Below are positions 3,083 through 57,594 of a stretch of 64,000 nucleotides of DNA, piece after piece. The stretch is taken from NCBI GenBank assembly GCA_017453245.1, contig JAFTKM010000008.1, forward strand, positions 19,017-83,016, read 5' to 3'. The position numbers and the translations under genes were made by a program. Numbering within the stretch: the first letter of the stretch is position 1; every line of letters starts with the position of its first letter. The DNA is from Clostridia bacterium. GTDB lineage: Bacteria > Bacillota > Clostridia > Oscillospirales > CAG-272. The notes under the pieces were generated by a model. It was not told where the DNA came from and made no database searches. It worked only from the letters and a program-made list of their open reading frames with translations.

Positions 3083-3110
3083 TTGACTTTTTCCCTATTT
3101 CGTGTATAAT
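3083..3110 (+). promoter_or_regulatory. Candidate sigma-A promoter of the aromatic amino-acid operon
   Basis: TTGACT (3083-3088), 16-nt spacer, TATAAT (3105-3110). A second TATAAT lies at 3115-3120. Confidence 0.5.
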
Positions 3111-3125
3111 ATGTGTATAATCCAA

Positions 3126-3140
3126 GTTAACAATGTTAAC
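3126..3140. promoter_or_regulatory. Candidate operator O2 (GTTAACAATGTTAAC), between the operon -10 and the RBS
   Basis: Two GTTAAC palindromes spaced by 3 nt. This is the paralogue of O1 at 3014-3028. Confidence 0.4.
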
Positions 3141-3154
3141 ATTACGGAGGAATT

Positions 3155-4351
3155 ATGATCAACGACAAGATGTACGCGCTCGGTTCTCAGCGCTCCGAGA
3201 TACGCGAGCTTTTTGAATACGGAAAAAAAAGAAAGGCCGAGATAGGCGAGGAGAACGTATTTGACTTCTCGCTCGGTAACCCGAGTGTCCCCTGCCCCGA
3301 GGAGGTTAACGAGGCAATCGTCTCCCTCGTCAGGAGCGGCAACTCTGTGAGCCTGCACGGCTACACGTCAGCGCAGGGCGATAAGGGTGTGCGCGATGCT
3401 ATCGCCTCGCATATTTCACGGGCTCACGGCTTTGAGGTATCCGGTGACGATCTGTATCTCACGGTTGGCGCGGCGGCGGCTCTTACCTGCTCCCTGACTG
3501 CAACGGTATGCCCCGGCGAGGAGGTCATTCTCCTGGCTCCGTATTTCCCCGAATATAAGGTTTTCGTCGAGAGGACGGGAGCGAGCGTCAAGGTAGTCAA
3601 ATGCACGGAAGGAAGCTTCGAGCCTGACGTTGATGCTATCAGGTCGGCTATCACCGAGAGGACTGCGGCGATCATAGTTAACTCACCGAACAACCCCACC
3701 GGCGCGGTATACTCCGAGAGTAGCATCAAGGCTATCGTAGAGGTCTTGAATGAGAAATCACGCGAGTACGGAAGGGACATATATCTCATAGCGGACGAGC
3801 CGTACAGAGAGCTTGTCTACGACGGTGTGTACGTGCCGTTTATTCCTAAGTATTACGATAATACTATCGTCTGCTATTCGTACAGTAAATCGCTCTCTCT
3901 CCCGGGCGAGAGAATAGGCTATTGCCTTGTCAGCCCGAGAGCACATGAGCACCTGAGGGTATACCTTGCGATATGCGGAGCGGGACGCGCGCTCGGTTAC
4001 GTTTGCGCACCGTCACTTCTGCAAAAAGCGATACCTTACTGCATAGGACTTTACTCAGATTTGAGCGTTTATGATAAAAATAGACAACTTTTGTTGACAA
4101 ATCTTACCGAATACGGTTTTGAAGTGGTAAAGCCGCAAGGAGCGTTCTATTTATTTATCAAGGCTCCGGATGGCAATTCGAAGGCTTTCTCCGAGGAGGC
4201 TAAGAAGCATGAGCTACTTATAGTCGCGAGCGACAGCTTCGGCTACTCGGGATACGCCAGAATATCCTACTGCGTAAAAACCGAACAGATAGAAAAGGCC
4301 CTCCCCGCCTTCCGCGCTTTGGCGGAGCGCTTAGGGCTTTGCGGAGAATAA
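3155..4351 (+). CDS. PLP-dependent class I/II aminotransferase (aspartate/aromatic type)
   Basis: 398 aa. Motifs NPSVPCP, NSPNNPTG and YSYSKSLSLPGERIGY (PLP-lysine motif). GGAGG RBS. First gene of the aromatic cluster. Confidence 0.85.
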   Translation: MINDKMYALGSQRSEIRELFEYGKKRKAEIGEENVFDFSLGNPSVPCPEEVNEAIVSLVRSGNSVSLHGYTSAQGDKGVRDAIASHISRAHGFEVSGDDLYLTVGAAAALTCSLTATVCPGEEVILLAPYFPEYKVFVERTGASVKVVKCTEGSFEPDVDAIRSAITERTAAIIVNSPNNPTGAVYSESSIKAIVEVLNEKSREYGRDIYLIADEPYRELVYDGVYVPFIPKYYDNTIVCYSYSKSLSLPGERIGYCLVSPRAHEHLRVYLAICGAGRALGYVCAPSLLQKAIPYCIGLYSDLSVYDKNRQLLLTNLTEYGFEVVKPQGAFYLFIKAPDGNSKAFSEEAKKHELLIVASDSFGYSGYARISYCVKTEQIEKALPAFRALAERLGLCGE

Positions 4352-4354
4352 ATA

Positions 4355-5443
4355 ATGAAGAATAAGCTGACAGTTGCAAGAGAAAAAATCAATGAGATAG
4401 ACCGCGAGATGGCAAAGCTCTTTGTCGAGAGGCTTAAGGCATCCGAGCTCGTTGCGGAATACAAGCAGGAGCACGGTCTTGAAATACTCGACCCGATAAG
4501 AGAGGCGGAGGTAATAAGACGCAATTCCGAGGCGGTCGAAAACGATGTTTACAGAGAATATTACGTCAACTTCCAGAAGAATACGATGTCACTCTCGAGA
4601 GCGTATCAGGCAAGACTCCTTGGGGGAATGAAGGTAGCTTACTCAGGTACTGAGGGAGCGTATGCGCACCTCGCCGCAAAGAAGCTCTTCCCTACCTCTG
4701 AGGCAATAGGATACGGCAGCTTTGACGAAGCGTATGCCGCTGTGGAAACGGGTGAATGTGACGTCGCCGTCCTCCCTATTGAAAACAGCTATAACGGAGA
4801 CGTAGGACAGGTGAGCGACCTGATGTTCTCGGGCCCCTTGTACGTCAATACCGTGACAGAGCTGGCAATATCTCACGACCTACTCGCGCCTCGTGGTACA
4901 AAGATCGAGGATATCAAAACGGTCATCAGCCATCCTCAGGCTCTCGGACAATGTCACGGCTACATCGTCGGGCACGGATACTCGGAGATGGAGTTTGCGA
5001 ATACCGCTCTCGCGGCAAAATACGTTTCGGAATGCACAGACGGAAAGACGGCGGCGATAGCGAGCGCGGAGGCGGCAGAGATATTCGGCCTTGAGGTGCT
5101 AGCGACAAATATAAACGAGTCGAGAAGCAATACCACGAGATTTGCGGTATTCTCGCGCTCGGAAAACAAGAATTCCATCACCGATAAGAGAGTGCATACG
5201 ATACTTCTCTTCACCGTGCGCCACGAGGCGGGAGCGCTTGCTAAGGCGCTTGAAGTTATCGCAAAATACGGCTTCAATATGGGCGCGCTTCGCTCACGTC
5301 CGATGAAGGAGCTGCTCTGGCAGTATTACTTCTACGTTGAAGCGGAGGGTAACCTGGACAGCGAGGACGGAAGAAAAATGATGGAGGAGCTCAAGGCTTA
5401 CTGTGACAGACTCAAGACCGTAGGCTCGTATACTGTAATCTGA
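4355..5443 (+). CDS. pheA: Bifunctional chorismate mutase / prephenate dehydratase
   Basis: N-terminal CM_2-like helix (REKINEIDREMAKLFVERLKASELVAEYK). PDT domain (VAYSGTEGAYAH, IENSYNGDV) and a C-terminal ACT-like region (TRFAVF...TILLF). Confidence 0.85.
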   Translation: MKNKLTVAREKINEIDREMAKLFVERLKASELVAEYKQEHGLEILDPIREAEVIRRNSEAVENDVYREYYVNFQKNTMSLSRAYQARLLGGMKVAYSGTEGAYAHLAAKKLFPTSEAIGYGSFDEAYAAVETGECDVAVLPIENSYNGDVGQVSDLMFSGPLYVNTVTELAISHDLLAPRGTKIEDIKTVISHPQALGQCHGYIVGHGYSEMEFANTALAAKYVSECTDGKTAAIASAEAAEIFGLEVLATNINESRSNTTRFAVFSRSENKNSITDKRVHTILLFTVRHEAGALAKALEVIAKYGFNMGALRSRPMKELLWQYYFYVEAEGNLDSEDGRKMMEELKAYCDRLKTVGSYTVI

Positions 5444-5458
5444 TAAACGGAGTTAATA

Positions 5459-6481
5459 ATGACAGTTTTGAATATGAATCTCGGGGAGAATTCCTACCCT
5501 ATCACAGTAGGCCAAGGACTCCTCGATAGATGTAACGAATACTTCGATCTTAACCGAAAGGTATTTATAATAACCGACGATGGCGTTCCGAATAAATATG
5601 CAAATACAGTTGCGAATTTATGCAAGGAGGCTACCGTCTATACCGTAAAGCAGGGTGAAGGCTCGAAGAGCATCGGCACGCTCGAGGGCGTGCTTGTAGC
5701 TATGGCAAATGCTGAGCTCGGACGCTCGGACTGTGTGGTTGCGATTGGCGGAGGCGTTGTCGGAGACCTTTCCGGATTTGCGGCATCGGTATATATGCGC
5801 GGCATAGATTTCTACAACGTACCAACCACCCTTCTCTCCCAGGTCGACTCGTCGATAGGAGGAAAGACCGCGGTAAATCTCGGCGGTATCAAGAATATCG
5901 TAGGCGCTTTCAAGCAACCGAAGGCGGTGCTTATCGACACAGACGTGCTTGACACTCTGCCGAAAAGACATATGGCAAACGGTCTATGCGAGGCAATCAA
6001 AATGGCGGCGACAAGCAATGCCGCGCTCTTTGGAAAACTCGAGACCTTGAATGAAAGCGACATATATAATAACATAGAAGAGATCATTGTCGAAGCACTC
6101 AAGATCAAGAAGACAGTAGTGGAAGAGGACGAGAAGGAATCAGGTCTTAGAAAAATACTCAACTTCGGTCACACTCTCGGTCACGGAATAGAAGCAAACG
6201 AGGACCTCGGCAACCTGTATCACGGAGAGTGCGTAGCTCTCGGTATGCTGCCAGTGACCTTCGGCGAGGCAAAGGAAAGACTCGCAAGACTCCTCAAAAA
6301 GGTGTCCTTACCGACCGAATACTCTGGAGATATAGGCGCCGCGCTCAGCTTTGTTTCGCACGATAAAAAGTGCGCCTCGGGCAAGGTTTCGGTCATACTC
6401 TGCGAGAAGATCGGAGAGTGTAAGATCGAGTCAATGAGCATCGACGAGTTCTCTAAATTAGTTCTTAACCATTATAATTGA
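5459..6481 (+). CDS. aroB: 3-dehydroquinate synthase
   Basis: 340 aa. Motifs GGGVVGDLSGFAAS, PTTLLSQVDSSIGGKTAVN and NFGHTLGHGIE. Confidence 0.9.
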   Translation: MTVLNMNLGENSYPITVGQGLLDRCNEYFDLNRKVFIITDDGVPNKYANTVANLCKEATVYTVKQGEGSKSIGTLEGVLVAMANAELGRSDCVVAIGGGVVGDLSGFAASVYMRGIDFYNVPTTLLSQVDSSIGGKTAVNLGGIKNIVGAFKQPKAVLIDTDVLDTLPKRHMANGLCEAIKMAATSNAALFGKLETLNESDIYNNIEEIIVEALKIKKTVVEEDEKESGLRKILNFGHTLGHGIEANEDLGNLYHGECVALGMLPVTFGEAKERLARLLKKVSLPTEYSGDIGAALSFVSHDKKCASGKVSVILCEKIGECKIESMSIDEFSKLVLNHYN

Positions 6482-6518
6482 CAACAATTATTTGCAAATA
6501 CCCCTTATAGGAGTAGAT

Positions 6519-7610
6519 ATGAAAAATACATTCGGAAACAATATATCCGTAACATTATTCGGCGAGAGCCACGGCGAGATGATTGGCGCGGTTCTCGACG
6601 GTCTTTGCGCAGGTGTGAAGATCGACTACGATCTTATAAAGAAGGAAATGGATAAAAGACGCCCCTCGGGCAAAATATCCACCCAAAGACGCGAGGCGGA
6701 CGAGGTAAGGATTGTCAGCGGTGTGATGAACGGTTACTCAACGGGTACACCCATCACCGTCCTTATAGAAAATACAAACACCAAGAGCAAGGATTACTCT
6801 CTGCTTAAGGACACACCCAGGCCCTCGCACGCAGACTATACCGCAGAGATTAAGTATCACGGCTTCCAGGACTACCGAGGCGGCGGACACTTCTCGGGAA
6901 GACTTACGGCACCCTTGGTCGCAGTCGGCGCTATCCTCACGTCTGCCCTTGCGGATAAGGGAATATATATCGGCACTCATATAAAGACTCTGCACGGAAT
7001 TTGTGACAGAGATTTCTCCTCTCTTAAAGATGACGTTGCACTTCTCTCGGACAAGCTCTTCCCCGTGCTTAATAACGAGTGTGAGAAGGCTATGACGGAG
7101 GAGATACTCAGGGCGAAGGAGATGGGAGACAGTGTTGGAGGCATTCTCGAATCAGCCGTTATCGGTCTTGACGCAGGCGTAGGCGAGCCGTGGTTTGATT
7201 CGCTCGAGAGCACACTCTCACACGCGCTCTTCTCTATCCCCGGTATTAAGGGTGTGGAGTTTGGTCTCGGCTTCGGCTTTGCCGACAAGTATGGCAGCGA
7301 GGCTAACGATCCCTTCGTGATCACGAACGAAAAAATATGCACAAAAACGAATAATAACGGCGGTATCAACGGAGGTATCTCCAACGGTATGCCGATCATT
7401 TTCAGAGTGGCGGTAAGACCTACTCCATCTATATTCAGGGAGCAACAGACCGTCAGCCTCTCAAAAATGGAAAATACAACGCTGAAGATAGACGGCAGAC
7501 ACGATCCCGCTATCATTCACAGAGCAAGAGCGGTAGTAGATGCTGTGACGGCGATCGCTATTGCCGACGCTGTGGCAACTGCTTTCGGCACCTCATATCT
7601 CGGAGGTTAA
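6519..7610 (+). CDS. aroC: Chorismate synthase
   Basis: MKNTFGNNISVTLFGESHGEMIGAVLDG, RPSHADYTA and GGGHFSGR. I prefer the ATG at 6519 (preceded by taggag) over the alternative start at 6492 in the ORF track. Confidence 0.9.
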   Translation: MKNTFGNNISVTLFGESHGEMIGAVLDGLCAGVKIDYDLIKKEMDKRRPSGKISTQRREADEVRIVSGVMNGYSTGTPITVLIENTNTKSKDYSLLKDTPRPSHADYTAEIKYHGFQDYRGGGHFSGRLTAPLVAVGAILTSALADKGIYIGTHIKTLHGICDRDFSSLKDDVALLSDKLFPVLNNECEKAMTEEILRAKEMGDSVGGILESAVIGLDAGVGEPWFDSLESTLSHALFSIPGIKGVEFGLGFGFADKYGSEANDPFVITNEKICTKTNNNGGINGGISNGMPIIFRVAVRPTPSIFREQQTVSLSKMENTTLKIDGRHDPAIIHRARAVVDAVTAIAIADAVATAFGTSYLGG

Positions 7611-7611
7611 G

Positions 7612-8850
7612 ATGAAATACGGTCTGATAGGAGAAAAGCTCGGACACAGCTTCTCAAAGGAAGTACATTCGATGCTCTCCGACTATGAATACGAAATACG
7701 CGAGATACCGAGAGATGAGCTCGACAGCTTTATGAGAGAGGCCGACTTTAAGGCTATCAACGTCACAATTCCCTACAAGGAAAGCGTTATTCCCTACCTC
7801 AGTTATATCAGCGAGGAGGCGAAGAAAATCGGTGCGGTAAACACGATAGTTAACCGCGGCGGCAAGCTCTACGGCTACAACACAGACTTCCTCGGAATGA
7901 CGGCAATGATCAATAAAATGAGACTTTCTCTTGCCGGAAAGAAAACTGTTATCCTCGGTACCGGTGGCACGTCAAAGACCGCCTTTGCCGTCGCGCAAAG
8001 CCTTGGTGCATCCCCGATCATTACCGTCAGCAGAACAAAAAGGGACGGTGTTATCGACTACGGCGAGCTTATAAAGGATCACCTTGATGCCGAGATAGTT
8101 ATTAATACCACACCGGTTGGAATGTATCCTGACAATTATTCATCGCCCCTTGATATAACCCCATTCAAAAATCTTGAGGGTGTGATCGACGCGATATACA
8201 ATCCGATCAGAACAACGCTCGTTATCGATGCGCTCGAGCGAGGTATCAAGGCAGAGGGCGGACTCTATATGCTTGTTGCTCAGGCAGTATACGCATCCGA
8301 GATATTCCTCGACGTCAAGTACCCCATAGAGAGGCTTGACAAGATCTATAAAAAGATCAAGAGAAAAAAGGAAAATATCGTACTTATCGGTATGCCCGCC
8401 TCGGGAAAATCGACCGTCTCGGCTCTGCTTGCAAATGACCTCTCAAGAAGGGTGCTTGATACCGATCAGATGATAATCGACGCAAGAGGTTTGAATATAC
8501 CCGAGATTTTCGCATCAGAGGGTGAGACAGCCTTCAGAGATTACGAAAGCACAGAAATTGCAAATGCAAGTTTACAAAACAATCTAATTATCGCAACGGG
8601 CGGCGGCGCGATACTGAGAAGAGAAAACGTCAGAATGCTGAAGCAGAACGGAGTTCTCTTCTTTATCGACAGACCGTATGAGAAGCTCGTACCTACCTCG
8701 GACAGGCCCTTGGCAAGTGACCTTGAGGCAATAAAAAAGAGATACGAGGAAAGATACGATATTTACGTAAGAGAGGCTGATTTTGTGATAGACGCGGACG
8801 ATCAGCCCGTAAACGTAGCAAAGAAAATCACCGGAGTGTTCTACAAATGA
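7612..8850 (+). CDS. aroE-aroK: Fused shikimate dehydrogenase (N-terminal) and shikimate kinase (C-terminal)
   Basis: N-terminus: YGLIGEKLGHSFSKEVH, NVTIPYKE, GAVNT, ILGTGGTSK. C-terminus: NIVLIGMPASGKSTVSALLA (Walker A), IIATGGG. ATG at 7612, 1 nt after the aroC stop and preceded by GGAGG. Confidence 0.85.
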   Translation: MKYGLIGEKLGHSFSKEVHSMLSDYEYEIREIPRDELDSFMREADFKAINVTIPYKESVIPYLSYISEEAKKIGAVNTIVNRGGKLYGYNTDFLGMTAMINKMRLSLAGKKTVILGTGGTSKTAFAVAQSLGASPIITVSRTKRDGVIDYGELIKDHLDAEIVINTTPVGMYPDNYSSPLDITPFKNLEGVIDAIYNPIRTTLVIDALERGIKAEGGLYMLVAQAVYASEIFLDVKYPIERLDKIYKKIKRKKENIVLIGMPASGKSTVSALLANDLSRRVLDTDQMIIDARGLNIPEIFASEGETAFRDYESTEIANASLQNNLIIATGGGAILRRENVRMLKQNGVLFFIDRPYEKLVPTSDRPLASDLEAIKKRYEERYDIYVREADFVIDADDQPVNVAKKITGVFYK

Positions 8851-9281
8851 AGAAGCTATATTACATAATCAACGGACCTAACTTAAATATGCTCGGCATA
8901 AGAGAGCCTGAGCACTACGGAAAAGAGAGCTACAAGGCACTCGTCAAAAGCGTAAAGGATACCGCAAAGGAGCTCGGTGTACGTATTAAGCTCTACCAGT
9001 CAAATCACGAGGGAGACCTTGTCGACAAGATTCAAGAGGCATACTTCAAGGGCGCCACGGGAATAGTCATAAATCCCGGAGCTTACACCCATACGAGCGT
9101 TGCTCTGCTTGACGCGGTAAAGTCAACAAGGCTCCCTACTGTCGAGGTGCATATCTCTAAGGTTGAGGAGCGCGAGGACTTCAGGCAGATAAGCTATATA
9201 AGTCTTGCCGCCGAGAAAAGAATTACCGGACGCGGAATTGCCGGCTACTCGGAAGCGCTCAGATATCTAGCTTCTAAATAA
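8847..9281 (+). CDS. aroQ: Type II 3-dehydroquinate dehydratase
   Basis: 144 aa. Motifs INGPNLNMLGIREPEHYG, QSNHEGDLVD, INPGAYTHTSVAL. Confidence 0.9.
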   Translation: MKKLYYIINGPNLNMLGIREPEHYGKESYKALVKSVKDTAKELGVRIKLYQSNHEGDLVDKIQEAYFKGATGIVINPGAYTHTSVALLDAVKSTRLPTVEVHISKVEEREDFRQISYISLAAEKRITGRGIAGYSEALRYLASK

Positions 9282-9351
9282 GCTTTTTGACTACTTTTAT
9301 TTTCAATATAGGCTTTATATACCTCACCAAGAACACTAAAAGGAAAACATA

Positions 9352-10566
9352 ATGAACGTAAGAATAAATAAGGGAGTGCCAGGGGGAAGAGTCAATGCCC
9401 CGCCCTCAAAATCCATGGCGCACAGAATGCTGATCTCTGCGGCTATGGCATCGGGTACAAGCAGAATACGCGGAATCTCCGACTGCGAGGACGTAAGAGC
9501 AACCATTGACTGTCTCGTTGCTCTGGGAGTACAGATCGAGCAGAGCGGAAACGACGTAACCGTCACGGGCGTTGATATGACCGCCTCGGCACCGCGCTCG
9601 GCACTTAACTGTAACGAGAGCGGAAGCACGCTGAGATTCCTATTGCCTATCGCGCTCCTATCCGGCAAAAACACTCTGTTTATGGGCGCTGAGGGCCTTA
9701 TGAAAAGGCCAATGAACGTCTACGAGGAGCTCTGCAAGAAAAAAGGGCTCAGCTACAACGCGGACGGCGAAAGTATCGCTGTACGCGGACCTCTCCCGGC
9801 GGGCGAATTTGAGGTGGTCGGTAACGTGAGCAGTCAGTTTATCAGCGGTCTGCTCTTTGCCCTCCCCTGCCTTCCTACCGACAGTAAAATCAAGATCATC
9901 CCTCCCATAGAAAGCAGGTCGTACATTGATCTGACCATTGAAGCTCTCGCGCTTTTCGGAGTCGAGGTAAAGTGGTCTGACGACACTACCCTTTACGTCA
10001 AGGGAGGACAAAAATACCGTCCCGCAGATCTTACCGTAGAGGGAGATTACTCGGGCGCGGCATTTATAGATTCCTTCTCACTCTTTGGCAGAGACGTCAG
10101 CGTTGACGGTCTTAACCCCGACAGCACTCAGGGTGACAAGGTCTACAAGCTTCTCTTTGATATGATAAAGAGAGGCGTACCCACAATACACATCGGAAAC
10201 TGTCCCGATCTTGGACCTATTCTTTTCGCGGCGGCCGCGGCAAAGCACGGCGCGGTCTTTACGGGCACGAAAAGGCTTAAGATAAAGGAAAGCGACAGAG
10301 CGGCGGCGATGGCCGAGGAGCTGTCTAAATTCGGAGTATCCGTGACCGTTTATGAAGATAAGGTAGTGGTCTACCCCATCAGCTTCCACGCTCCCAGCGA
10401 GACCTTATGCGGACACAACGATCACAGAATAGTAATGGCTTTGGCTGTCCTCTTGACGCTTACGGGCGGAGAGATCACGGGCGCTGAGGCAATAAATAAG
10501 AGCTATCCCTCATTCTTCGAGGATCTCAGAGCGCTTGGAATTGAGGTTACGGAATATGAAGCTTGA
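9352..10566 (+). CDS. aroA: 3-phosphoshikimate 1-carboxyvinyltransferase (EPSP synthase)
   Basis: 404 aa. Motifs PPSKSMAHR, CNESGSTLRFLLP, KESDR, HNDHRIVMA. Confidence 0.9.
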   Translation: MNVRINKGVPGGRVNAPPSKSMAHRMLISAAMASGTSRIRGISDCEDVRATIDCLVALGVQIEQSGNDVTVTGVDMTASAPRSALNCNESGSTLRFLLPIALLSGKNTLFMGAEGLMKRPMNVYEELCKKKGLSYNADGESIAVRGPLPAGEFEVVGNVSSQFISGLLFALPCLPTDSKIKIIPPIESRSYIDLTIEALALFGVEVKWSDDTTLYVKGGQKYRPADLTVEGDYSGAAFIDSFSLFGRDVSVDGLNPDSTQGDKVYKLLFDMIKRGVPTIHIGNCPDLGPILFAAAAAKHGAVFTGTKRLKIKESDRAAAMAEELSKFGVSVTVYEDKVVVYPISFHAPSETLCGHNDHRIVMALAVLLTLTGGEITGAEAINKSYPSFFEDLRALGIEVTEYEA

Positions 10567-11419
10567 CAAAAATACAAAGATACTGATAATAGGTCTTGGC
10601 GTTATAGGAGGCGGATACGCCTCGGCGCTGACCGAAAAGGGATATAACGTCTCTTGCATCACTAAGGAGCAAAAGGATATCGATTACGCTCTAGAAAGAG
10701 GTATGATAAAACACGGCACGACAAAGGTCGACCCCGAGCTTATCGGCGAGGCTGAGCTTGTTATCTTTGCCCTCTATCCTACCGTCTTTATCGAGTGGAT
10801 CGAAAAATACCAAAGGTATTTTAAACCGGGCACACTTATCACCGACGTGACCGGTGTCAAGGAAAGCGTTGTCGGCACTGTGCAATCGATGTTAAGAGAT
10901 GACGTCGAGTTCATCCCGGCGCACCCGATGGCGGGACGTGAGAGAAGCGGCGTTGAATACTCTGACCCGCAGGTTTTTAAGGGCGCAAACTACATAGTCA
11001 CCCCCACGAAGAAGAATACGGCTGAGGCTATTGAGCTCTGCAAGAGCCTTGGTGAAATACTCGGCTTTGCGAGAATAAGCGTGCTATCCCCCGAGGAGCA
11101 CGACGAAATGATCGCCTTCCTCTCCCAGCTAACGCACTGCATAGCAGTTGCGCTGATGACCTGCAACGAGGCGGAGGGACTTGAAAAATATACGGGAGAC
11201 TCCTTCCGTGACCTCACAAGAATCGCGAAGATAAACGATGCGATGTGGAGCGAGCTTTTCCTTATGAACAAGGACGCGCTCATTAAGGAAATGGACGCTT
11301 TTGTCGGCGAGGTCGAAAAAATGAAGAGAATGCTCATCTCGGGTGACCGCGAGGGACTCAGAGCCCTGATGCAAAGGTCGACCGAAAGGCGCTCACTCTT
11401 CGACAAACCGACTGTGTAA
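10556..11419 (+). CDS. tyrA: Prephenate dehydrogenase
   Basis: MKLDKNTKILIIGLGVIGGGYA (Rossmann fold) and HPMAGRERSG. ATG at 10556 overlaps the aroA stop. Confidence 0.85.
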   Translation: MKLDKNTKILIIGLGVIGGGYASALTEKGYNVSCITKEQKDIDYALERGMIKHGTTKVDPELIGEAELVIFALYPTVFIEWIEKYQRYFKPGTLITDVTGVKESVVGTVQSMLRDDVEFIPAHPMAGRERSGVEYSDPQVFKGANYIVTPTKKNTAEAIELCKSLGEILGFARISVLSPEEHDEMIAFLSQLTHCIAVALMTCNEAEGLEKYTGDSFRDLTRIAKINDAMWSELFLMNKDALIKEMDAFVGEVEKMKRMLISGDREGLRALMQRSTERRSLFDKPTV

Positions 11420-11480
11420 TGTCGGAAAATGTAAGAAAACAAAGAATTTGTATTATGATTGTACCGAAAGGACGGTAAAA

Positions 11481-12518
11481 ATGGAAAAGAATTTAACCTT
11501 CTACAGAAAGCTGCCTATACCGAAGGAAATTAAGGCAGAATTCCCTATCTCAAAGGAGCTCGCCGAGTTAAGACAGAGACAGCTCGACGAAATGAGAGAC
11601 ATCTTCGAGGGCAGGTCGCAAAGGCTCCTGCTCATCATAGGTCCCTGCTCCGCGGACGCAGAGAAGCCTGTGCTCGATTATATCTCGCGTCTAAGAAAGG
11701 TCCAGGACGACGTTAAGGAAAAGATAATGATCGTGCCGAGAGTATACACCAACAAGCCGAGAACAACCGGCGAGGGCTACAAGGGTATGCTCCATCAGCC
11801 CAATCCCAATGCCGCGCCCGACCTGCTCAAGGGTATAGTCGCGATAAGACAGCTCCATCTCAAGACTCTCGCGGAGACCGGCTTCTGCCCCGCTGACGAG
11901 ATGCTCTATCCCGAGAATTACAGATACCTCTCGGATATACTCGGCTACGTTGCCATCGGCGCGCGCTCATCGGAAAACCAGCAGCACAGACTCGTCTCCA
12001 GCGGCATCGACGTGCCCGTAGGTATGAAGAATCCGACCGGCGGAGATATATCGGTAATGATGAATTCCATAAAGGCGGCTCAGTCGGGCCACACCTTCCT
12101 TTACAGAGGCTGGGAGGTCGAGAGCAAGGGCAATCCTCTCTGCCACGCCATACTCCGCGGCTACGTCGACAAGCGCGGTCAGTCGCACCCCAACTATCAC
12201 TTCGAGGACCTGTACTCTCTTTGGGAGACGTATCAGGCATCGGGACTCAAGAATCCCGCGGTAATAGTTGACACCAACCACTCAAACTCCGGCAAGAAAT
12301 ACCTCGAGCAGCCGAGAATCGCGAAGGAGATACTCCACAGCGCAAGATATTCTCCCGAGGTGCGCTCGCTCGTCAAGGGACTTATGATCGAGAGCTATAT
12401 TGAGGACGGCTCGCAGAAGATTTCCGACTGCGAGGTATACGGAAAATCCATCACAGACCCCTGCCTCGGCTGGGATAAGACGGAAAAGCTCATCTACGAC
12501 CTCGCGGACGTGCTTTAA
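11481..12518 (+). CDS. aroG: 3-deoxy-7-phosphoheptulonate (DAHP) synthase, class I
   Basis: Motifs IIGPCS, VYTNKPRTTGEGYKGM, GMKNPTGGD, DTNHSNS. I prefer the start MEKNLTFY at 11481 over 11448. Confidence 0.85.
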   Translation: MEKNLTFYRKLPIPKEIKAEFPISKELAELRQRQLDEMRDIFEGRSQRLLLIIGPCSADAEKPVLDYISRLRKVQDDVKEKIMIVPRVYTNKPRTTGEGYKGMLHQPNPNAAPDLLKGIVAIRQLHLKTLAETGFCPADEMLYPENYRYLSDILGYVAIGARSSENQQHRLVSSGIDVPVGMKNPTGGDISVMMNSIKAAQSGHTFLYRGWEVESKGNPLCHAILRGYVDKRGQSHPNYHFEDLYSLWETYQASGLKNPAVIVDTNHSNSGKKYLEQPRIAKEILHSARYSPEVRSLVKGLMIESYIEDGSQKISDCEVYGKSITDPCLGWDKTEKLIYDLADVL

Positions 12519-12528
12519 TAGCTTTAAA

Positions 12529-12571
12529 GGAACAGATAAGAGACAAAAGCTCTCCGTCTGTTCCTTTTTTC
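12529..12571 (+). terminator. Putative intrinsic terminator of the aromatic operon
   Basis: GGAACAGA (12529-12536) pairs with TCTGTTCC (12557-12564), followed by TTTTTT. The loop is long (20 nt), so this is only moderately convincing. Confidence 0.5.
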
Positions 12572-12674
12572 TTGTCTTGAGCGTGAAAAAACTCACTTAT
12601 ATAAGACACGTGTCAATTAATAACATATATAAAATGAATAAGATGTAAATTCCTGCTTTTAGTCAAACTCAGTC

Positions 12675-12703
12675 TTGACTTTTAAAGCTTGAAGTGGTAA
12701 GAT
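12675..12703 (+). promoter_or_regulatory. Candidate promoter of the surface-lipoprotein operon
   Basis: TTGACT (12675-12680), 17-nt spacer, TAAGAT (12698-12703). Confidence 0.4.
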
Positions 12704-12760
12704 ATAGGATGGCTTTATATATTTTCACACGTGTTTATTATTTTTTAAAGGAGCAGATAT

Positions 12761-15700
12761 ATGAACTTCAAAAAACTGATATCGTTTCTCCTTTGTCTTA
12801 TTCTCACTCTCAGCTGCGTGCTTCCGCTAGTCAGCTGCGGAGGTAAGGATAACGGCGGGGATGATGACGATGGCAAGACACCCGGCGGCAGTGTCGTCGG
12901 AGGCGGTAACGGAGGCACCACGGAAAACGGTGAAACCGAATATACCGTCAAGGTAGTAACCGTAGGCGGAATGCCTCTTGAGGGCGTTATGGTATACATC
13001 CATAACGGTGAAGCATACAGCGTATGCACCGCGCCTCAGGAGACTGACAAGGACGGTATCGCAAAATTCAAGCTCAAGACGTCTAACGACTACTCCGTAC
13101 AGATCGACGGCGCGCCTAACGGCTACAACGTAAAGGAAGGCCTTACCAAGGATGACAGATATCCTCTCACGGCGCCCGACACGCTCATTACCCTTTCCTC
13201 CGCACCTATCACAAGCGGCGGCTTCAAGAGCTCTTACGATATTGGTGACGTTATGTACGACTTCACCCTTACCGACATCAACGGCGACACGTACAAGCTC
13301 TCCGAGATGCTCAAGACCAAGGATATGGTAATGCTCAACTTCTGGTACGTAGGTTGCTCGAACTGCTACTATGAGTTCCCCTATATCAACAACGTATACA
13401 AGAATTACATGGACGATATTGAGATCCTTGCGATCAACGACTATACGACCGATACCAAGCAGGACGTGATCGACTATCCCGAATATCTCGGCGAGGAGCT
13501 CGCAATGCCCCTGTTTAAGGTCGGCAACACCGCGAACGATCTCACCCTCTCCAAGTTCCCGAGTGAGGGTTATCCCACCACCGTTATTATCGACAGATAC
13601 GGTGTTATCTGCATGATCGAGGTCGGCGCAGTTCTCGGCGACTCCAAGTGGAAGAACATATTCGATCACTTTGTAGGCGATGACTACAAGCAGACTCTCA
13701 TCACAGACAACTCCATCCTCAATCCTCAGCTCGAGCCCACCGTTAAGTGGGATGACGATTCCGCCGAGGAAATTGCAAATGCGTTTAACAGCGGTGATAT
13801 CACCGTAAGCTATCATCCCGAGACAAACGAGAAGGACGCTAAGTACGCCTGGCCCTTCATCGTGGACACATATAACGGTGAAACAGTCGTACGCCCCTCC
13901 AACAACGGCGTTGACAACTCCTTCGCAATTCTTTACGCTGACGTACAGCTCAAGCCCGGTCAGGCAATTATGTTCGACTGGTTTGCTTCGACTCAGAATA
14001 ACGAGATGGGTACGGACGTGCTCTACATTCTCGTTGACGGCAAGGATATCTACTCTATATCCGGTATCAGCGAGGACGGCTACGAGATCTGCTGTACCTA
14101 CGTTGACCCCCGTCCCGTAACCGAGACTAACAAGGACGACGTCGCTACCTATGAGGTTGCGTTCGCGTACTATAAGGACACGGTTGAATCCGAGGGCGAC
14201 GACACCGTTTACCTCAAGAATCTCAGAGTTGTCGGAGTTGACGAGATTCCCGTTGAGACCTACATCTTCCGCTATGCGGCAACAGATCTTAACGAGACCG
14301 GTGACGGCTACAACACCTACGTTACCGTACATCTCGGTGCTGACGGCTACTACCACGTAGGCTCTGTGGACGGACCTCTCCTTCTTGCAAACCACTTAAG
14401 CTACACTCAGTTTGACTCCGAAAAGACCGTATCCGAGAGAGTTTACGCTAACTACTCACTTATGGTTAACGGAGTAAACAAGTTCCAGAACTGGGTAACC
14501 TACGGCAACGCCGCATCCAACTCCCAGATGTACTACTACACCCCCGTAACCGAGGAGCTCCGCGAGATGCTTATGGCATACTGCGAGGAGCACAGACGTG
14601 AGGTTGGTAAATCTGCGAGCGAGAACCTCTGGCTCCAGCTCTGCGTTTACTATGACGCATACGGAGTTGACGAGGATGGCAACCCCGCAGAGCACCTTCC
14701 CGACCCCATTCAGGGTCTTACCTCCTTCTCCGCATTCGAGGTGGAGATCACAAACGATAATCCTACTACTCAGGGCGACGTTGTCGCAAGCGCTGAGGTC
14801 ACCTACAACAGAGTAATTATGCCCCGTGGCTACCTCTACAAGTTCGTACCCACCAAGTCCGGCGTATACCGCATCACCTCTAAGAGTGAGCAGGAGGTAA
14901 ACGGCTGGATCTTCACCGGTAACAACGATGAGTGGGTAAAGAACGAGGGTGACAGAACCATTCTTACAAGCGATTCTGTCGCAGAGCGTATAACCGACGA
15001 TCTCCTTATTGAGAATGAGGACGGCACTATGGCCTTCGACCGTACCAACGTATCTCTTGTTGCGTATATGGAAGCGGGCGAGGCATACTACATCGACATC
15101 GCGTACTATGACGTATACGCGGTAGGCACCTTTACCTTTGACGTTAAGTGGATCGGCGAAAGCTTCGGACACTTCATCCAGGCATCTCCCGGACCTATCA
15201 CCTATATCGAGTCTGTAAACGGCGGTATGGGCCAGCTTATCGCAGGCGGTATCGACGTTGACTTCAAGACTGTGGACGGCGTTGAATACGCATATCAGGT
15301 TCTCGAAAGAGACGAGAACGGAAACGTTACAAAGTGGGGCGAGAAGATCTATGCAGACTTCTACTATCCCACCACACTCTTCCCCTCGCAGTCCATCGAG
15401 GCGCTCCTCAAGGCTAACGCCTTCAACTACACCATCACCGAGCTTGACAGAGAGGCTCTTATACTTCTCGACGGTGTAAGAGTTGACGGTAAGGCAGCTC
15501 TCATCGATAAGTGGATCAAGGAAGAAACCGTAGCCGACAAGGATGCGGCAGAGGCTAAGTGGGCAGAGCTCGGACTTGACGATATCGTTAAGGACGGACT
15601 CGACGGCACATATGACGGCACCTACACCGACGAGGCACTCGCACTCGCTGATTACGTAATTGCAGAGGGTACGTACGAGCTCAAGGCCGAGTGGGGCAAG

Positions 15701-52636: not shown

Positions 52637-52776
52637 TGGGTTTATGTATACTTTGATTAGCATTATGCTAAATTAAGATGATTTTGCGGCACGTGATAAC
52701 AACCGCGTTATGAGATTCATCAAAAGGAAATCTTATATTTGCTCCTCTCTGAAATCAAAACTTGTTTGTTAATTGT

Positions 52777-53124
52777 TCTATAGCACACCGGGGCGAAAAA
52801 GTAAAGGACGGTTTGATTACTCGGGGCCGCCCTGCTTTTAACCTTCCCCAGCGAAGCGAGTTGGGGAAGGGGGACCACCTTTGGTGGTGGATGAGGTTGA
52901 ATTGATGCTCACGCATCATAAATTGCACGTTGTGCATGAATTGGCTACACCATGAATTGACGGCAAAGTCGTCACTATGGTGAAGTTTTTGCCTACGGCA
53001 AAAGTGAAGTTGTGCGAAGCACAGTGAAGTTTGAGGCGTTGCCTCAAGTGAAGTTGATTTTGCTCGGTGCAAAATCAGTTATTCGGTAAGAGACCTCATG
53101 GCTTTGGCAATACAGTCGGGGTAA
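52777..53124 (-). repeat. Cassette junction repeat copy 5 (cotJC-tail mimic 53079-53117, word-hairpin array 52842-53075, promoter block 52777-52835); followed by no ORF
   Basis: The mimic encodes DCIAKAMRSLTE-stop on the minus strand. The array is parsed in the findings. TTTACT, 17 nt, TATAGA. Confidence 0.8.
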
Positions 53125-53571
53125 CTAATTATTCAATAGATGATTTATCAACTCTTCGAGTCCGTCGGAATCAACGTTATAACCCCTCTTGCCGGTTTCG
53201 CTTTCTTCTGTTGCTTTATCCACCCACCCCGAATATGAAAATTGTAGCTCATACGTGGGGTAATAAAAAACAAGAACATTCTCTCTAGGCCAGTTTGGCT
53301 CCATAACTATCAGTTTTTCAAATTTCATATTAGCTATTTCTGATATTGCATAATCACATTCTTCGGCACTTAATGTTTTGACAATTTCGGTATTGAATTG
53401 ATATTCCGGTTCATAAATAGTAGAATAAGTGACAATCTCCGCCTTTACTAAATCGGCGCTTAATTCATCGTAAGTATAAGTTACGTAAGAGCCTGTACAT
53501 GATGCTGTGTTGAATAAAACGCAAAATACAATAAGCAAAACTAGTACGCACTTCACATTGTTATTATTCAT
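53125..53571 (-). CDS. Cassette D cargo: small lipoprotein (148 aa), hypothetical
   Basis: MNNNNVKCVLVLLIVFCVLFNTASCTGS (signal plus Cys). GGAGG lies 8 nt upstream of the ATG at 53571. AT-rich. Confidence 0.7.
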   Translation of the reverse strand: MNNNNVKCVLVLLIVFCVLFNTASCTGSYVTYTYDELSADLVKAEIVTYSTIYEPEYQFNTEIVKTLSAEECDYAISEIANMKFEKLIVMEPNWPRENVLVFYYPTYELQFSYSGWVDKATEESETGKRGYNVDSDGLEELINHLLNN

Positions 53572-53915
53572 AGTTGTTCCCTCCATAAAAAACTTATAGA
53601 ATGATGCCACATTTATTATACCACACTCACACGAAAAAGTAAAGGACGATTTGATTTCTCAAACCGCCCTATATGATGAATTGATGCTCACGCATCATGA
53701 ATTGCACGATGCGCATGAATTGGCTACGCCATGAATTGACGGCAGAGCCGTCACTATGGTGAAGTTTTTGCCTATGGCAAAAGTGAAGTTGTGCGAAGCA
53801 CAGTGAAGTTTGAGGCGTTGCCTCAAGTGAAGTTGCTTTTGCTTCTTGCAAAATCAGTTATTCGGTAAGAGACCTCGTAGCTTCGGTAATACAGTCAACA
53901 TAAAGCATTATTCAA
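53572..53915 (-). repeat. Cassette junction repeat copy 4 (mimic 53858-53896, array 53676-53855, promoter 53615-53643)
   Basis: The mimic encodes DCITEATRSLTE-stop. Promoter is TTTACT, 17 nt, TGgTATAAT. Confidence 0.85.
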
Positions 53916-54773
53916 TCACTTTAATTTTTCTTTACAATAACGCAAAAGCTCTTTGGTTAAGCAACAGAACGATTCACCTTTCACCTGTACCTTTCCATTG
54001 GAATCTATGAACTCACAACAAAATTCAATATAGTAGCACAACTTTATACTATTATCCAACAGGACTCTAATTGGTGAGCCAATTTGGACAAGTTCTTTTT
54101 TTCTCCAAAGATTTCGGTCAATGAAAATGCCTTTATCATCATAGTCAGAATTACTCGCAATTTGCTCTAATGGCTCAAATGAGAAGTATATTCCAAGATA
54201 TGTTGAATTTTCATTAGATAAAAACATTGTGAGTTCTACAAAATCAACTTGCTTAAAGCATCTTTTCCCAAATTCATTCCAATACCAAAGATATATTAAC
54301 AGTTGCTTTTGGGAAAGAAATTCAGTCAATCCAGATAAATCTTCTTTTTCCCAAAATCCACCGATCGTATATGTTTTGTATTTTATTTTTGGTTGTTCGC
54401 AATAAGTAATTGCCTGTTCAAACAACTGTGACGAGGGCGAATAATCAATATCAATTCTGCCAAATGTTTTGGTCTTGCCACATTCCGTGCATTGTGAGAC
54501 AAGCTCAACGGAAATAAAATCATCTGTTTCTTTTCTTCGCAGGTAATCAAAACGAACCTTAAAGAAATCATTTTTACAGGAACACTTTTGCTTGCTTGGA
54601 TGCTTTTCTTGAATTAAATCATACCAATATTCTTTACTATCAAGAATAAAATAGGATTTATCAGAACGAGATATAAGAATACCTGCATTTTCATCACGAA
54701 TATATCTGATTTGAAACTCATCTTCTCCTATAGATGACACAATTTCTTTTTGTATTTTTCTTTCGTCAAGCAT
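53916..54773 (-). CDS. Cassette C cargo: hypothetical protein (285 aa) with a CxC...CxxC putative zinc-ribbon
   Basis: KQKCSCKNDFF...SQCTECGKTK. AAAGGAA RBS. A hand count of one 60-nt line (54001-54060) gives 17 G+C. Confidence 0.7.
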   Translation of the reverse strand: MLDERKIQKEIVSSIGEDEFQIRYIRDENAGILISRSDKSYFILDSKEYWYDLIQEKHPSKQKCSCKNDFFKVRFDYLRRKETDDFISVELVSQCTECGKTKTFGRIDIDYSPSSQLFEQAITYCEQPKIKYKTYTIGGFWEKEDLSGLTEFLSQKQLLIYLWYWNEFGKRCFKQVDFVELTMFLSNENSTYLGIYFSFEPLEQIASNSDYDDKGIFIDRNLWRKKELVQIGSPIRVLLDNSIKLCYYIEFCCEFIDSNGKVQVKGESFCCLTKELLRYCKEKLK

Positions 54774-55018
54774 ATGGCAATTCCTTTCTTTTGTTATACA
54801 ATGTCAAACGATGAATTGAGCCGTTGGCTCATGAATTGCACAAAGTGCATGAATTGGCTACGCCATGAATTGACGGCTATGCCGTCGTTGTGGACACCTC
54901 ATCCACCACTTCGCGGTCGACCCCCTTCTCCCACTGGAGAAGGCTGAGGTTATTCGGTCAAAGACCTCATAGCTTCGGCAATACAGTCAGAGTGAAGTAT
55001 TCTTTTTAAATACGGTTC
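54774..55018 (-). repeat. Cassette junction repeat copy 3 (mimic 54950-54988, short array 54808-54949); lacks the conserved promoter block
   Basis: The mimic encodes DCIAEAMRSLTE-stop. About 55 nt (CCTTCTCCCACTGGAGAAGG hairpin through CATAGCTTCG) is near-identical to the true cotJC end at 57021-57075. Confidence 0.85.
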
Positions 55019-55522
55019 TCATTTGCCACAACAGCTATTACAAGCACTATCGGGTTCTTTACAATGATACCAACAATAATCCTGGCTAATTCGAGACGCA
55101 TATTTTGAAGCCTGAATTTCAAGAGAACGATTGTTTTTTTCCTTATCATCATAAAAATACCATTGAAAATAATGTGTCAGTTCATGACTTAGCGAATCGT
55201 ATATTTGGCATAAGCTTTGTTGCGTAGGAATGTATATCTGCGGATATGCTCGTTCGCCACTTTCATGATTTGAGAAAAACATCCCATAGCTATATCCCCC
55301 TTTGTGCTTACGAAATTTTTCTTGATTGCAAAAATAAACATTACATCTTATCGGGAAGTAAAATTCTTTTCTTAAATAGCGTACAAAATTACATATACAT
55401 TTCTTGGTTTTAGGGTCAATGTCTGATGCAAAATGAAGAGAAAGATTTGATTTAGGTGCTGAATCTGCATAAAATGCCAAGTTTTCCTCTGTTTTTGTTA
55501 CCCACAAAAAGTTATTTGCCAT
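55019..55522 (-). CDS. Cassette B cargo: hypothetical HExxH protein (167 aa), possible small zinc metallopeptidase, Cys-rich C-terminus
   Basis: LSHELTHYFQW and C-terminal CWYHCKEPDSACNSCCGK. ATG at 55522 has GGAGGT 8 nt upstream. Confidence 0.7.
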   Translation of the reverse strand: MANNFLWVTKTEENLAFYADSAPKSNLSLHFASDIDPKTKKCICNFVRYLRKEFYFPIRCNVYFCNQEKFRKHKGGYSYGMFFSNHESGERAYPQIYIPTQQSLCQIYDSLSHELTHYFQWYFYDDKEKNNRSLEIQASKYASRISQDYCWYHCKEPDSACNSCCGK

Positions 55523-55895
55523 TTTTAAGCACCTCCATTTCAAATCGACTCTATGATAATTATACCACACACCTACCAAAAAGTAAAGGACGATTTGATC
55601 TCTAAACCGCCCTATTGAATGAATTGAGCCGTTGGCTCATGAATTGCACGTTGTGCATGAATTGGCTACGCCATGAATTGACGGCTATGCCGGCGTTGTG
55701 GACACCTCACCCACCGTCTGCGACGTCCCCCCTCCCCAAAGGGGAGTGTAAATGCCACCTTCGCAAAGCGAAGATTTCATCGCTTTAGCGATTTCATCCG
55801 ACCTCGTCGGATTTATTTCGTCTTGGACGGATTTAATTGCGAAGCCTACTCCGTAAGGCTTCGCATGGCTTCGCCAATGCAGTCGACATGAAGTA
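55523..55895 (-). repeat. Cassette junction repeat copy 2 (recoded mimic 55846-55884, array 55616-55845 with ATTTCAT-type words, promoter 55559-55587)
   Basis: The mimic encodes VDCIGEAMRSLTE-stop with different codons for RSLTE-stop. Promoter is TTTACT, 17 nt, TGgTATAAT. Confidence 0.85.
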
Positions 55896-56669
55896 CTATT
55901 TATTGTTTTCCACCAACTTTTTTATGTAATCGCTTCTGCTTCCGTCCCAATGACACAATTCGCATTTGCCGTCCTTAAATTGATGCTTACACTTTTCATA
56001 ACCATAAAGAATATGTGCACACTCGGGACAAAGCGACATCATTTGCGATTTAGTTTTAATAAACTTGCTTCCGCATTCATCACATTCGTGACAGATTGAG
56101 CCAAGAGTTTCTTTCATTTTTTCTCTATCATAATCTAAAAAATAACCTTCAAGTTTTGGATAAAACTCAATATATTTATTCTCAGAAAAGAAAACAATAT
56201 CACAACCCCTATCGTCATAGACTGAAAATATAAATTGATCATCAAATGAAACAAAACTGACCAAAGGTGAATATTGATTATCTATTTGTTTTTTTATTAT
56301 TCTTTCAAAAACTGCGAAATCAACATCAAATGAAATATATCTTTTTACTGTTTCAACATCTTCGTCTATTAGATCTATACTATGTAGCACATCCATATCA
56401 AGATTAATTACTTCGTCAATGGTTATTCCAAAATTGCCAACTTCGCATGCTTTGCCGTCAATAAAATACTCTAAATAAAATGCCGCATCTATTTTTTTGT
56501 TTTCAAATAAAATGTTAGCAATTTTCATTGCTCTCTCTAAAGCGTTATCAAAATATTCTTTGCCTTGACCAATTCCCAACTCGCATCTTAAAGCTAATTT
56601 ATTACTGTAAAACCAGGGCTGCGAGTAATCGAAAGTGGGGTCAAGTATTTTTTCACGCATATTGTTCAT
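55896..56669 (-). CDS. Cassette A cargo: hypothetical protein (257 aa), DUF3885-like N-terminal region (tentative) plus C-terminal double zinc-ribbon
   Basis: SVYDDRGCDIVFF, and CHECDECGSKF...CPECAHILYGYEKCKHQFKDGKCELCHW. AT-rich. Confidence 0.7.
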   Translation of the reverse strand: MNNMREKILDPTFDYSQPWFYSNKLALRCELGIGQGKEYFDNALERAMKIANILFENKKIDAAFYLEYFIDGKACEVGNFGITIDEVINLDMDVLHSIDLIDEDVETVKRYISFDVDFAVFERIIKKQIDNQYSPLVSFVSFDDQFIFSVYDDRGCDIVFFSENKYIEFYPKLEGYFLDYDREKMKETLGSICHECDECGSKFIKTKSQMMSLCPECAHILYGYEKCKHQFKDGKCELCHWDGSRSDYIKKLVENNK

Positions 56670-57045
56670 GTTACTTGCTCTCTTTTAGAATATAATATTG
56701 TTTTTTACATTATACCACAACCCACATGAAAAAACAAGGACGATTTGACTAATCAAACCGCTAATCAAACCGCCCTTGTGGATGAATTGAGCCGTTGGCT
56801 CATGAATTGCACAGAGTGCATGAATTGGCTACGCCATGAATTGACGGCTGTGCCGTCGTTGTGGTGAAGTTTGCGTTTCACGCAAGTGAAGTTGTGCGAA
56901 GCACAGTGAAGTTGATTGTAGCCTTCTCCTGAGGGAGAAGGGGGACCACTTGTGGTGGATGAGGAGTTGGCTATAATTACAACAAAAGTGACACCTCATC
57001 CGCCTCACTTCGTTCAGCACCTTCTCCCACTGGAGAAGGCTTAGG
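56670..57045 (-). repeat. Cassette junction repeat copy 1 (abuts the true cotJC stop; array 56781-57045, promoter 56709-56737)
   Basis: Same ATGAATT and GTGAAGTT word-hairpin grammar. Promoter is TTGTTT, 17 nt, TGgTATAAT. Carries a duplicated GGTTTGATTAG unit. Confidence 0.8.
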
Positions 57046-57594
57046 CTATTCGGTCAAAGACCTCATAGCTTCGCCAAAGCGCTGGTAGTGGACAATCTCG
57101 CGCTGGCGGAGGAATTTGATAGCGTCGTTTACGTCGGGGTCGTCGCTAAGGCGGAGGATATTATCGTAGGTGACTCTCGCCTTCTGCTCTGCCGCGAGGT
57201 CCTCGTTGAGGTCGGAGAGCGCGTCTCCCTTTGAGGATATTGCAAACGCGTTGAAGGGCTCGCCCGATGCCGCCGAGGGGAAGACACCGTTGCCGTGGCC
57301 GATGTAATACTTATCAAGGCCGCCGGCAGTTATCTGCTCGGGGGTGAGGTTGCGTGTGAGCTGATAGATGATACTGCCCACCATCTCGGCATGCCCGAGC
57401 TCCTCATTGCCGATGTCCGTTAAGGTAGCGATAATCTTGCCCTTAGGCATAGTGAATCTCTGATTCAGGTATCTTGTCGCGGCGCCGAGCTCACCGTCGG
57501 GACCTCCGAGGGCGTCTATAATAAGACTTGCTAAGCGCGCGTTGGGGTTCTTAATCTTTACGGGGTACTGAAGCTTTTTCTCATATATCCACAT
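57046..57594 (-). CDS. cotJC: Spore coat protein CotJC (manganese-catalase-family)
   Basis: MWIYEKKLQYPVKIKNPNARLA...GELGAATRYLNQRF...EELGHAEM...REIVHYQRFGEAMRSLTE. Close to my recollection of B. subtilis CotJC. Confidence 0.9.
   Translation of the reverse strand: MWIYEKKLQYPVKIKNPNARLASLIIDALGGPDGELGAATRYLNQRFTMPKGKIIATLTDIGNEELGHAEMVGSIIYQLTRNLTPEQITAGGLDKYYIGHGNGVFPSAASGEPFNAFAISSKGDALSDLNEDLAAEQKARVTYDNILRLSDDPDVNDAIKFLRQREIVHYQRFGEAMRSLTE

Follow-up and report, generated by a model that had tools for sequence, protein, structure and literature searches.

A putative terminator-promoter head on single-gene cassettes at the cotJC locus of uncultured gut Clostridia

The cassette array downstream of cotJC

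The window, the whole stretch of 64,000 nucleotides analysed here, contains an array of single-gene cassettes on the minus strand, downstream of cotJA/B/C (Table 1). Members of the genus are uncultured ruminant-gut Clostridia, known as metagenome-assembled genomes (MAGs). The four cargo genes are AT-rich (GC 0.32-0.36, versus ~0.49 for the genome). Three of the four cargo proteins had no match in Pfam, and PADLOC and NCBIfam returned nothing useful on cargo function. Homologues were found for cargo A in a cassette of G558 (83% identical), for cargo C in G460 and G501 (80% amino acid identity) and for cargo D behind a block in G516 (72% identical). Judged by eye, the N-terminus of cargo D looks like a signal peptide or a lipoprotein leader. 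Behind cargo A, the P arm of the 3' boundary matches the half-site adjoining the 519-aa serine recombinase of G031 and G538.

Table 1 Parts of the array from cotJC to the terminal unit, in positions of the window
Feature	Positions	Strand	Basis
cotJC, Mn-catalase-like spore coat gene	57046..57594	minus	Pfam Mn_catalase, E=5.9e-52; CotJB upstream
First tail, the final ~30 nt of cotJC (..GEAMRSLTE-stop)		minus	Tail repeats seen
Hairpin block A, left arm lengthened by a 12-nt duplication, then T-tract	56734..56779	minus	Fold -24.8 kcal/mol, z -7.0; terminator-like in scan
Cargo A promoter: -35 TTGTTT (56737-56732), 17-nt spacer, TGTGGTATAAT, -10 (56714-56709)	56709..56737	minus	Direct sequence reading and alignment A1
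Cargo A, 257 aa, DUF3885 with C-terminal Zn-ribbon, GC 0.32	55896..56669	minus	PF13021, E=2.2e-16
3' boundary after cargo A: P half-site TACTTCATGTCGACTGCATTG, core GCGAAGC, recoded cotJC tail (..EAMRSLTE-stop)	55846..55894	minus	
Hairpin block B, stem GGGCGGTTT / AAATCGTCC, 7-nt loop, palindrome broken	55587..55613	minus	Fold -12.2 kcal/mol; terminator-like in scan
Cargo B promoter: TTTACT, 17 nt, TGTGGTATAAT	55559..55587	minus	Scan 10/12 with TG
Cargo B, 167 aa	55019..55522	minus	No family match
P half-site, core and tail copy after cargo B	54950..55000	minus	Sequence
Cassette C block remnant CGTTTGACATTGTATAAC	54793..54810	minus	Alignment with the intact blocks of the G460 and G501 homologues
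Cargo C, 285 aa	53916..54773	minus	No family match
P half-site, core and tail copy after cargo C	53858..53908	minus	Sequence
Hairpin block D, AGGGCGGTTTGA-GAAA-TCAAATCGTCCT (the copy on which the original prediction centred)	53643..53670	minus	Fold -16.6 kcal/mol, z -5.7; antisense -7.9; terminator-like in scan
Cargo D promoter: TTTACT within the T-tract, 17 nt, TGTGGTATAAT	53615..53643	minus	Scan 10/12 with TG
Cargo D, 148 aa	53125..53571	minus	No family match
P half-site, core and tail copy after cargo D	53079..53126	minus	Sequence
Terminal ('empty') block: weakened hairpin (52833-52806), T-tract TTTACTTTTT, decayed -10 TATAGA (52782-52777)	52777..52833	minus	Fold of the hairpin -10.9 kcal/mol, z -0.9
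Lost-cargo remnant, 22 codons, start ATG changed to ATA	52668..52736	minus	12/20 identical to Imm33-like N-terminus

The original prediction described a shared block, a promoter with an upstream TTTGA-N4-TCAAA palindrome, at four places in the array. All four copies were found on the minus strand, at 56779-56709, 55613-55559, 53670-53615 and, in degenerate form, 52833-52777. The 14-mer TCAAAYCGTCCTTK occurs four times on this strand, against 0.11 occurrences expected by chance. As had been claimed, the gap between TTTACT and TATAAT is 17 nt in all four copies, with TTGTTT at the TTTACT position of the 56.7-kb copy and TATAGA at the TATAAT position of the degenerate one. TG precedes the -10 in the three intact copies, and the distance of 37-44 nt between the end of the -10 and the ATG was also reproduced for cargo A, B and D. 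The palindrome stood in part: it is intact in only two of the four window copies, and it is broken in the 55.6-kb copy (TTTAG-AGA-TCAAA) and in the 52.8-kb copy (CCCGA-GTAA-TCAAA). Common to all window copies is a longer stem, GGGCGG...CGTCC. The half-site duplication noticed in the 56.7-kb copy proved to be a 12-nt tandem duplication of the left stem arm, which the homologous G558 cassette does not have. The duplicated segment (GGTTTGATTAGC, 56748-56771, minus strand) extends the putative terminator stem to ~19 pairs, with a predicted fold of -24.8 kcal/mol.

Gaps between tail and hairpin in the window (52840-57040) are filled by word-hairpin arrays, in which the words CAATTCAT, AACTTCAC and ATGAAATC stand between mini-hairpins. 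Such arrays occur at dozens of intergenic sites genome-wide, and in this window the Gut-1-like repeats have evidently been inserted between tail and hairpin. Rfam gave sub-threshold Gut-1 matches in the neighbouring word-hairpin arrays only, and no match for the block.

Cassette C was said to lack the block. It has none now, but this is a secondary loss, as the homologues in G460 and G501 carry the full block. Cassette C retains TTGACATTGTATAAC; the hairpin is gone, the -10 is mutated to TATAAC, and 11 nt are deleted downstream, a pattern indicating that the hairpin was lost and the promoter crippled. With no terminator upstream, cassette C may be read through from cassette B, or may be silent. 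The reading of the last unit as empty had to be abandoned: it is a truncated cassette with a decayed -10 and 22 codons of cargo, which agree at 12 of 20 residues with the N-terminus of an Imm33-like cassette protein of 92 aa (G460, G516; E=5e-7). An ancestral empty site was rejected on the same grounds, the decayed promoter and the Imm33-like codons. The orthologous terminal unit in G486 (L073) is better preserved, with a -10 of CATAAT.

Stem-loop and promoter features of the block

A stem of 10-11 bp, GGGCGGTTTGA / TCAAATCGTCC, has the TTTGA-N4-TCAAA palindrome as its upper part. Alignment A2 combines 45 distinct block copies, which were drawn from the window and from other genomes of the genus and represent at least 23 species. 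Across the 45 copies, 94.7% of the cells of the 11-pair stem were paired, versus at most 55% when the 3' partner was slid by 1-3 columns. Pair 7-31 was GU in 27 copies, GC in 14 and AU in 3, and pair 10-28 was GU in 35, GC in 6 and AU in 4; the copies are related, and these pair counts represent non-independent events. UA-to-CG double changes were seen at pairs 11-27 and 13-25, and double-sided covariation was modest (5 cells, 2 pairs). RNAalifold recovered the base of the stem on its own. Because the stem uses G-U pairs, the fold is stronger on the coding strand: in 43 of 45 copies the sense hairpin exceeded its antisense counterpart in stability (mean -13.4 versus -7.5 kcal/mol). The loop spans four aligned columns in 30 copies, five in 5 and six in 10, and some copies carry compensatory half-site replacements (CCCGA/TCGAG, GGCT/AGCC, TTTGGG/CCCAAG).

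These properties bear on the proposal that TTTGA-N4-TCAAA binds a dimeric transcription factor which co-regulates all the cargo promoters. In its favour, the half-sites adjoin the -35 on its upstream side, a position typical of activators and repressors, and ~37 of the 45 copies have genuine Watson-Crick palindromes at the five inner base pairs. However, the half-sites stand at varying distances (loops of 4, 5 or 6 columns), the outer stem depends on G-U pairs, which form no palindrome in duplex DNA, and in some copies the half-sites are replaced by the compensatory pairs listed above. The 55.6-kb copy combines a broken palindrome with an intact promoter. The genome-wide search for a regulon suggested in the original prediction was also carried out. 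Searching the whole 1.59-Mb assembly (27 contigs) for block and core with up to four mismatches returned the four array copies only, and neither the 33-nt head nor looser versions of it occurred elsewhere in these contigs. No site outside an array was seen in this genome or among the checked copies from the genus; with no block copy outside the array, there is no regulon. Pfam checks of the neighbours of the array (DUF4416, MazG-like, cupin, heparinase-like, NfnAB-like and QueT) revealed no recognisable DNA-binding regulator. Given the G-U stem, the variable loop, the missing outside copies and the missing neighbouring regulator, co-regulation of the cargo by one DNA-binding factor did not hold up, and we regard an operator at this position as highly improbable.

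Directly after the stem, at least six of the first 10 nt are T in all 45 copies. This tract reads TTTACTTTTT, TTGACTTTTT or TTGCTTTTTT, and the corresponding U-tract is interrupted by AC. A GC-rich stem-loop of 10-11 bp at -12 to -25 kcal/mol is followed by a T-tract, and pairing, not sequence, is conserved, on one strand, as is expected of an intrinsic terminator. In anatomy, hairpin and T-tract together match a predicted intrinsic terminator and not a duplex operator with spaced half-sites.

The T-tract opens with TTTACT in 28 copies, TTGACT in 8 and TTGCTT in 5 (of 45). TATAAT was present in at least 36 of the 45 copies, the 17-nt spacer in at least 36, and TGTG before the -10 in 37. The block has the elements of a sigma-A extended -10 promoter, namely TATAAT, TG at -15/-14 and a TTGACA-like hexamer 17 +/- 1 nt upstream. 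Voskuil and Chambliss reportedly described in 1998 such an extended -10, TRTGnTATAAT, as the '-16 region' of Firmicutes. AC occupies positions 4-5 of the -35 in 37 of the 45 copies, and the six copies with TTGCTT or TTGCCT have G at position 3 instead; this pattern suggests that a -35 constraint may act on top of the U-tract. A consensus scan listed the block sites of the window twice, as terminator-like and as promoter-like with TG. When applied to the compact array of G537, it returned just four terminator-like sites, all of them block hairpins and each overlapping a top-scoring promoter. Sequence reading and scan agreed with the earlier claim that each block-bearing cassette has its own well-formed sigma-A-type promoter with an extended -10, and promoter and upstream element were indeed found to form a conserved cassette module (45 copies, at least 23 species).

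Position of the block and boundaries of the cassettes

The block was present in at least 23 of the 151 species genomes of the genus, always in single-gene cassette arrays at the cotJC 3' end or a remnant of it; the genus-wide copies that were checked lay in arrays at cotJC or its 3'-end remnant, or at contig ends. The strict pattern had no match in 97 other genera of the family. Viral contigs matched neither the block nor P-arm plus core, and metagenome contigs yielded 12 short contigs only. Neither the arrays nor the junction module turned up in the literature that was searched.

A fold-based scan detected hairpin and T-tract at 43 of 48 junctions from 24 genomes, and 36 of these also have TGnTAYAAT. 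The basic junction in relatives is ~120 nt long and consists of the cargo stop, ATACTTCAyNyTGACTGTATTG, GCGAAGC and a short cotJC-like tail with a stop codon, followed by CTAAATAAAACA, the hairpin, the T-tract/-35 and then the -10. Four junctions (L059, L063, L071) have a second junction type instead of the block, containing ..TCTTCACAGGGCAAGCCCTGATTGATCTGCTTCTTGTTTC.. with the -10 ~76 nt further on. In L090 (G021:C75), block, promoter and a lipoprotein-like cargo gene stand directly behind full-length cotJC; there is no upstream copy of P-arm or tail, and the flank CCTTTACCCGGGACGG resembles the P arm. In L069 (G504:C89) and L070 (G477:C62) the block is present, and all that is left of cotJC is a short piece of its 3' end or a tail copy alone, following an unrelated gene, which suggests that cotJC may have been lost or rearranged after the array formed.

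Behind cotJC, cassette-free relatives carry a canonical but unrelated terminator at the position of the block hairpin. For this reason the hairpin could not, as a general statement, be equated with the native terminator of cotJC. A gene in the same orientation precedes the hairpin, and no second terminator separates the two; in the scan of the window, the intervals from each cargo stop to the following block contained no further strong terminator candidate. The last unit of the array, next to the downstream nfnA-like gene, has lost its -10 in five species and still has the hairpin and the T-rich stretch; this would fit a terminator that remains necessary for the last cassette.

These observations can be set against the view that only the promoter works and that the hairpin is a passive relic, or only stabilises the preceding mRNA at its 3' end, and does not truly terminate transcription. 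An extended -10 promoter requires few other elements, small hairpin repeats such as the Gut-1-like arrays are common throughout the genome, and the terminal hairpin in the window is decaying. Yet pair-preserving substitutions keep the hairpin in many species, it always abuts the T-tract, it survives in terminal units with a decayed promoter, and the scan offers no other terminator candidate for cotJC or for any cargo gene. We consider a promoter without a terminator to be decidedly unlikely.

We find it probable that the block is a fused terminator-promoter head making each cassette an insulated expression unit. Transcripts from cotJC or from the preceding cassette would fold into the GC-based hairpin GGGCGGTTTGA-loop-TCAAAUCGUCC and would terminate within the U-tract after it. 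The same T-rich DNA (TTTACT or TTGACT) would serve as the -35 of a sigma-A-type promoter, with the 17-nt spacer and the extended -10 TGTGnTATAAT next, and ~30-37 nt would separate the start of the new transcript from the RBS and ATG of the cargo behind it. The cassettes would be insulated, probably constitutive units, independent of the sporulation-specific cotJ operon. The anatomy of the block, its conservation, strand bias and position are observed; that termination and initiation actually occur at these positions is what we infer from the sequence.

A 519-aa large serine recombinase (Resolvase, Recombinase and Zn_ribbon_recom domains) is encoded in G538 and G031, directly upstream of the boundary sequence, and was found in these 2 of the 151 genus genomes. 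No Resolvase-domain gene was matched in the present assembly, which is 64% complete. The 8.2-kb element of G031 is bounded on one side by cotJC...CGCTTTGGCGAAGC joined to AATACAGTCAGGGTAAAG and on the other by CTTTACGTTGATTGTTTTG joined to the GCGAAGC-tail, and attL and attR of this genome served to define the crossover core GGCGAAGC and the inverted P/P' arms. These bounds identify the 3' boundary of the cassettes as the putative P half-site and core of the 519-aa recombinase. Cassettes carry the P half-site only, never P'. At the left end of the 8.2-kb element, a stop codon and a terminator-like hairpin come right after the cotJC junction, an analogy that favours the terminator reading of the block. 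Two elements interrupt cotJC in G031:C48 (L074/L082, ~349-15669): one of 6.5 kb, encoding a 586-aa serine recombinase, lies near cotJC codons 47-65, and the 8.2-kb element lies at the GGCGAAGC core.

CotJC is 182-185 aa long in array-bearing species versus ~200-207 aa in most cassette-free relatives (L085-L101), for which reason the short tails (EAMRSLTE-stop, EAMNILRDKKF-stop, EAMEILKGKKF-stop) look element-derived. G010 has a short tail, yet no cassette.

Six cross-species pairs of near-identical cassettes share a segment that starts between 15 nt before and 80 nt after the hairpin start and ends within ~27 nt of the recombinase core; the flanking cotJC tails are not shared. Since this boundary of near-identity falls in or next to the block, the block may also, or instead, serve recombination. 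It could be mainly a 5' recombination signal or homology arm with secondary terminator and promoter features, acting either as a strand-specific folded site like the attC of integrons or as a conserved stretch for homologous recombination that swaps cargo. The segments shared by the six pairs, from near the hairpin start to near the core, agree with this. The hairpin is strand-specific, as an attC site is, and the P half-site stands without P' in the cassettes, so that a second boundary signal is missing. On the other hand, large serine recombinases use duplex sites of ~40-50 bp, and the hairpin starts ~45-50 nt, or several hundred nt, downstream of the core, outside the att site. The left boundaries of the shared segments scatter over ~95 nt with no single point, which fits homologous recombination in any conserved stretch; recombination of this kind in the conserved head and the P-arm would explain the bounds of the six pairs. 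Tail and Gut-1-like arrays flanking cassette D look duplicated (alignment A1), as core-by-core crossover predicts, and a recombination signal leaves both the T-tract and TGTGnTATAAT at a fixed 17 nt unexplained. A mainly recombinational role appears unlikely to us.

Only tentatively do we suggest that the fused terminator-promoter head belongs to an integron-like, gene-collecting platform built on a large serine recombinase. A cassette would then consist of terminator, promoter, gene and P half-site, and the head would double as the 5' recombination boundary or homology arm by which species exchange cargo.

Comparison with known systems

A 65-nt terminator-promoter head on each unit would account for how little-known mini-cassettes of uncultured gut Clostridia could express their cargo. 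If this is right, the cargo (immunity-like and unknown proteins) is predicted to be expressed in vegetative cells at any position in the array, and transcription of the cotJ operon to be cleanly ended. The block would be a compact natural 'insulated expression part', testable in Firmicute hosts, and its conservation provides a simple sequence handle for locating such arrays. A false lead is also removed, a hidden regulon or operator being unsupported.

The block resembles an ordinary terminator abutting a sigma-A promoter in its GC-based stem of 10-11 bp, its loop of 4-7 nt and its U-tract, and in having TGTG-TATAAT 17 nt from a TTGACA-like hexamer with the RBS and ATG 30-45 nt downstream. It differs in that U-tract and -35 are the same nucleotides, and in that the 65-nt unit is a portable module placed before dozens of unrelated cargo genes in many species.

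Integrons mostly use one platform promoter, and cassettes far from this promoter tend to be poorly expressed. Like them, the cotJC arrays string single-gene cassettes with unrelated cargo together at one site in the chromosome, gain new cassettes next to a fixed end and have a conserved strand-specific hairpin at every junction. Unlike integrons, the cotJC arrays have no attC architecture; their junctions consist of a large-serine-recombinase half-site and a copy of the cotJC end, and no IntI tyrosine recombinase was found among the scanned flanking ORFs. The contrast with the typically promoterless integron cassette, drawn in the original prediction, was upheld: 36 of 48 junctions have their own extended -10 promoter behind a terminator-like hairpin, and in cotJC arrays an own promoter and putative terminator are the rule, not the exception. 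Integron cassettes with a promoter of their own do exist, the Sucellos cassette among them (bioRxiv 10.1101/2024.07.02.601686).

As in SCC and psi-SCC islands, insertion of the cotJC cassettes is in the last codons of a conserved gene whose end is restored, elements accumulate in tandem, and those without a recombinase are presumably moved in trans. SCC and psi-SCC islands reside at the 3' end of rlmH (orfX) and are moved by Ccr large serine recombinases. In contrast to these islands, cotJC units are 0.5-1.2 kb long with one gene each and a standard terminator-promoter head, and the recombinase whose P half-site the cotJC cassettes carry was found in only 2 of the 151 genus genomes.

Sporulation genes are also interrupted by intervening elements with a large serine recombinase, such as skin in sigK and SPbeta in spsM. 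Further examples are gin in gerE (PMC5595907) and yin in yabG (PMC10747680), and according to one preprint, which cites Abe et al. 2013, such elements frequently integrate at cotJC (bioRxiv 10.1101/2021.11.22.469490). The 8.2-kb (519-aa recombinase) and second (586-aa recombinase) elements of G031 split cotJC in the manner of such elements, and the 3' ends of the cassettes have the same P half-site. The cassettes differ from intervening elements in leaving cotJC intact by means of a replacement tail, and in forming arrays that carry neither a recombinase nor a P' arm.
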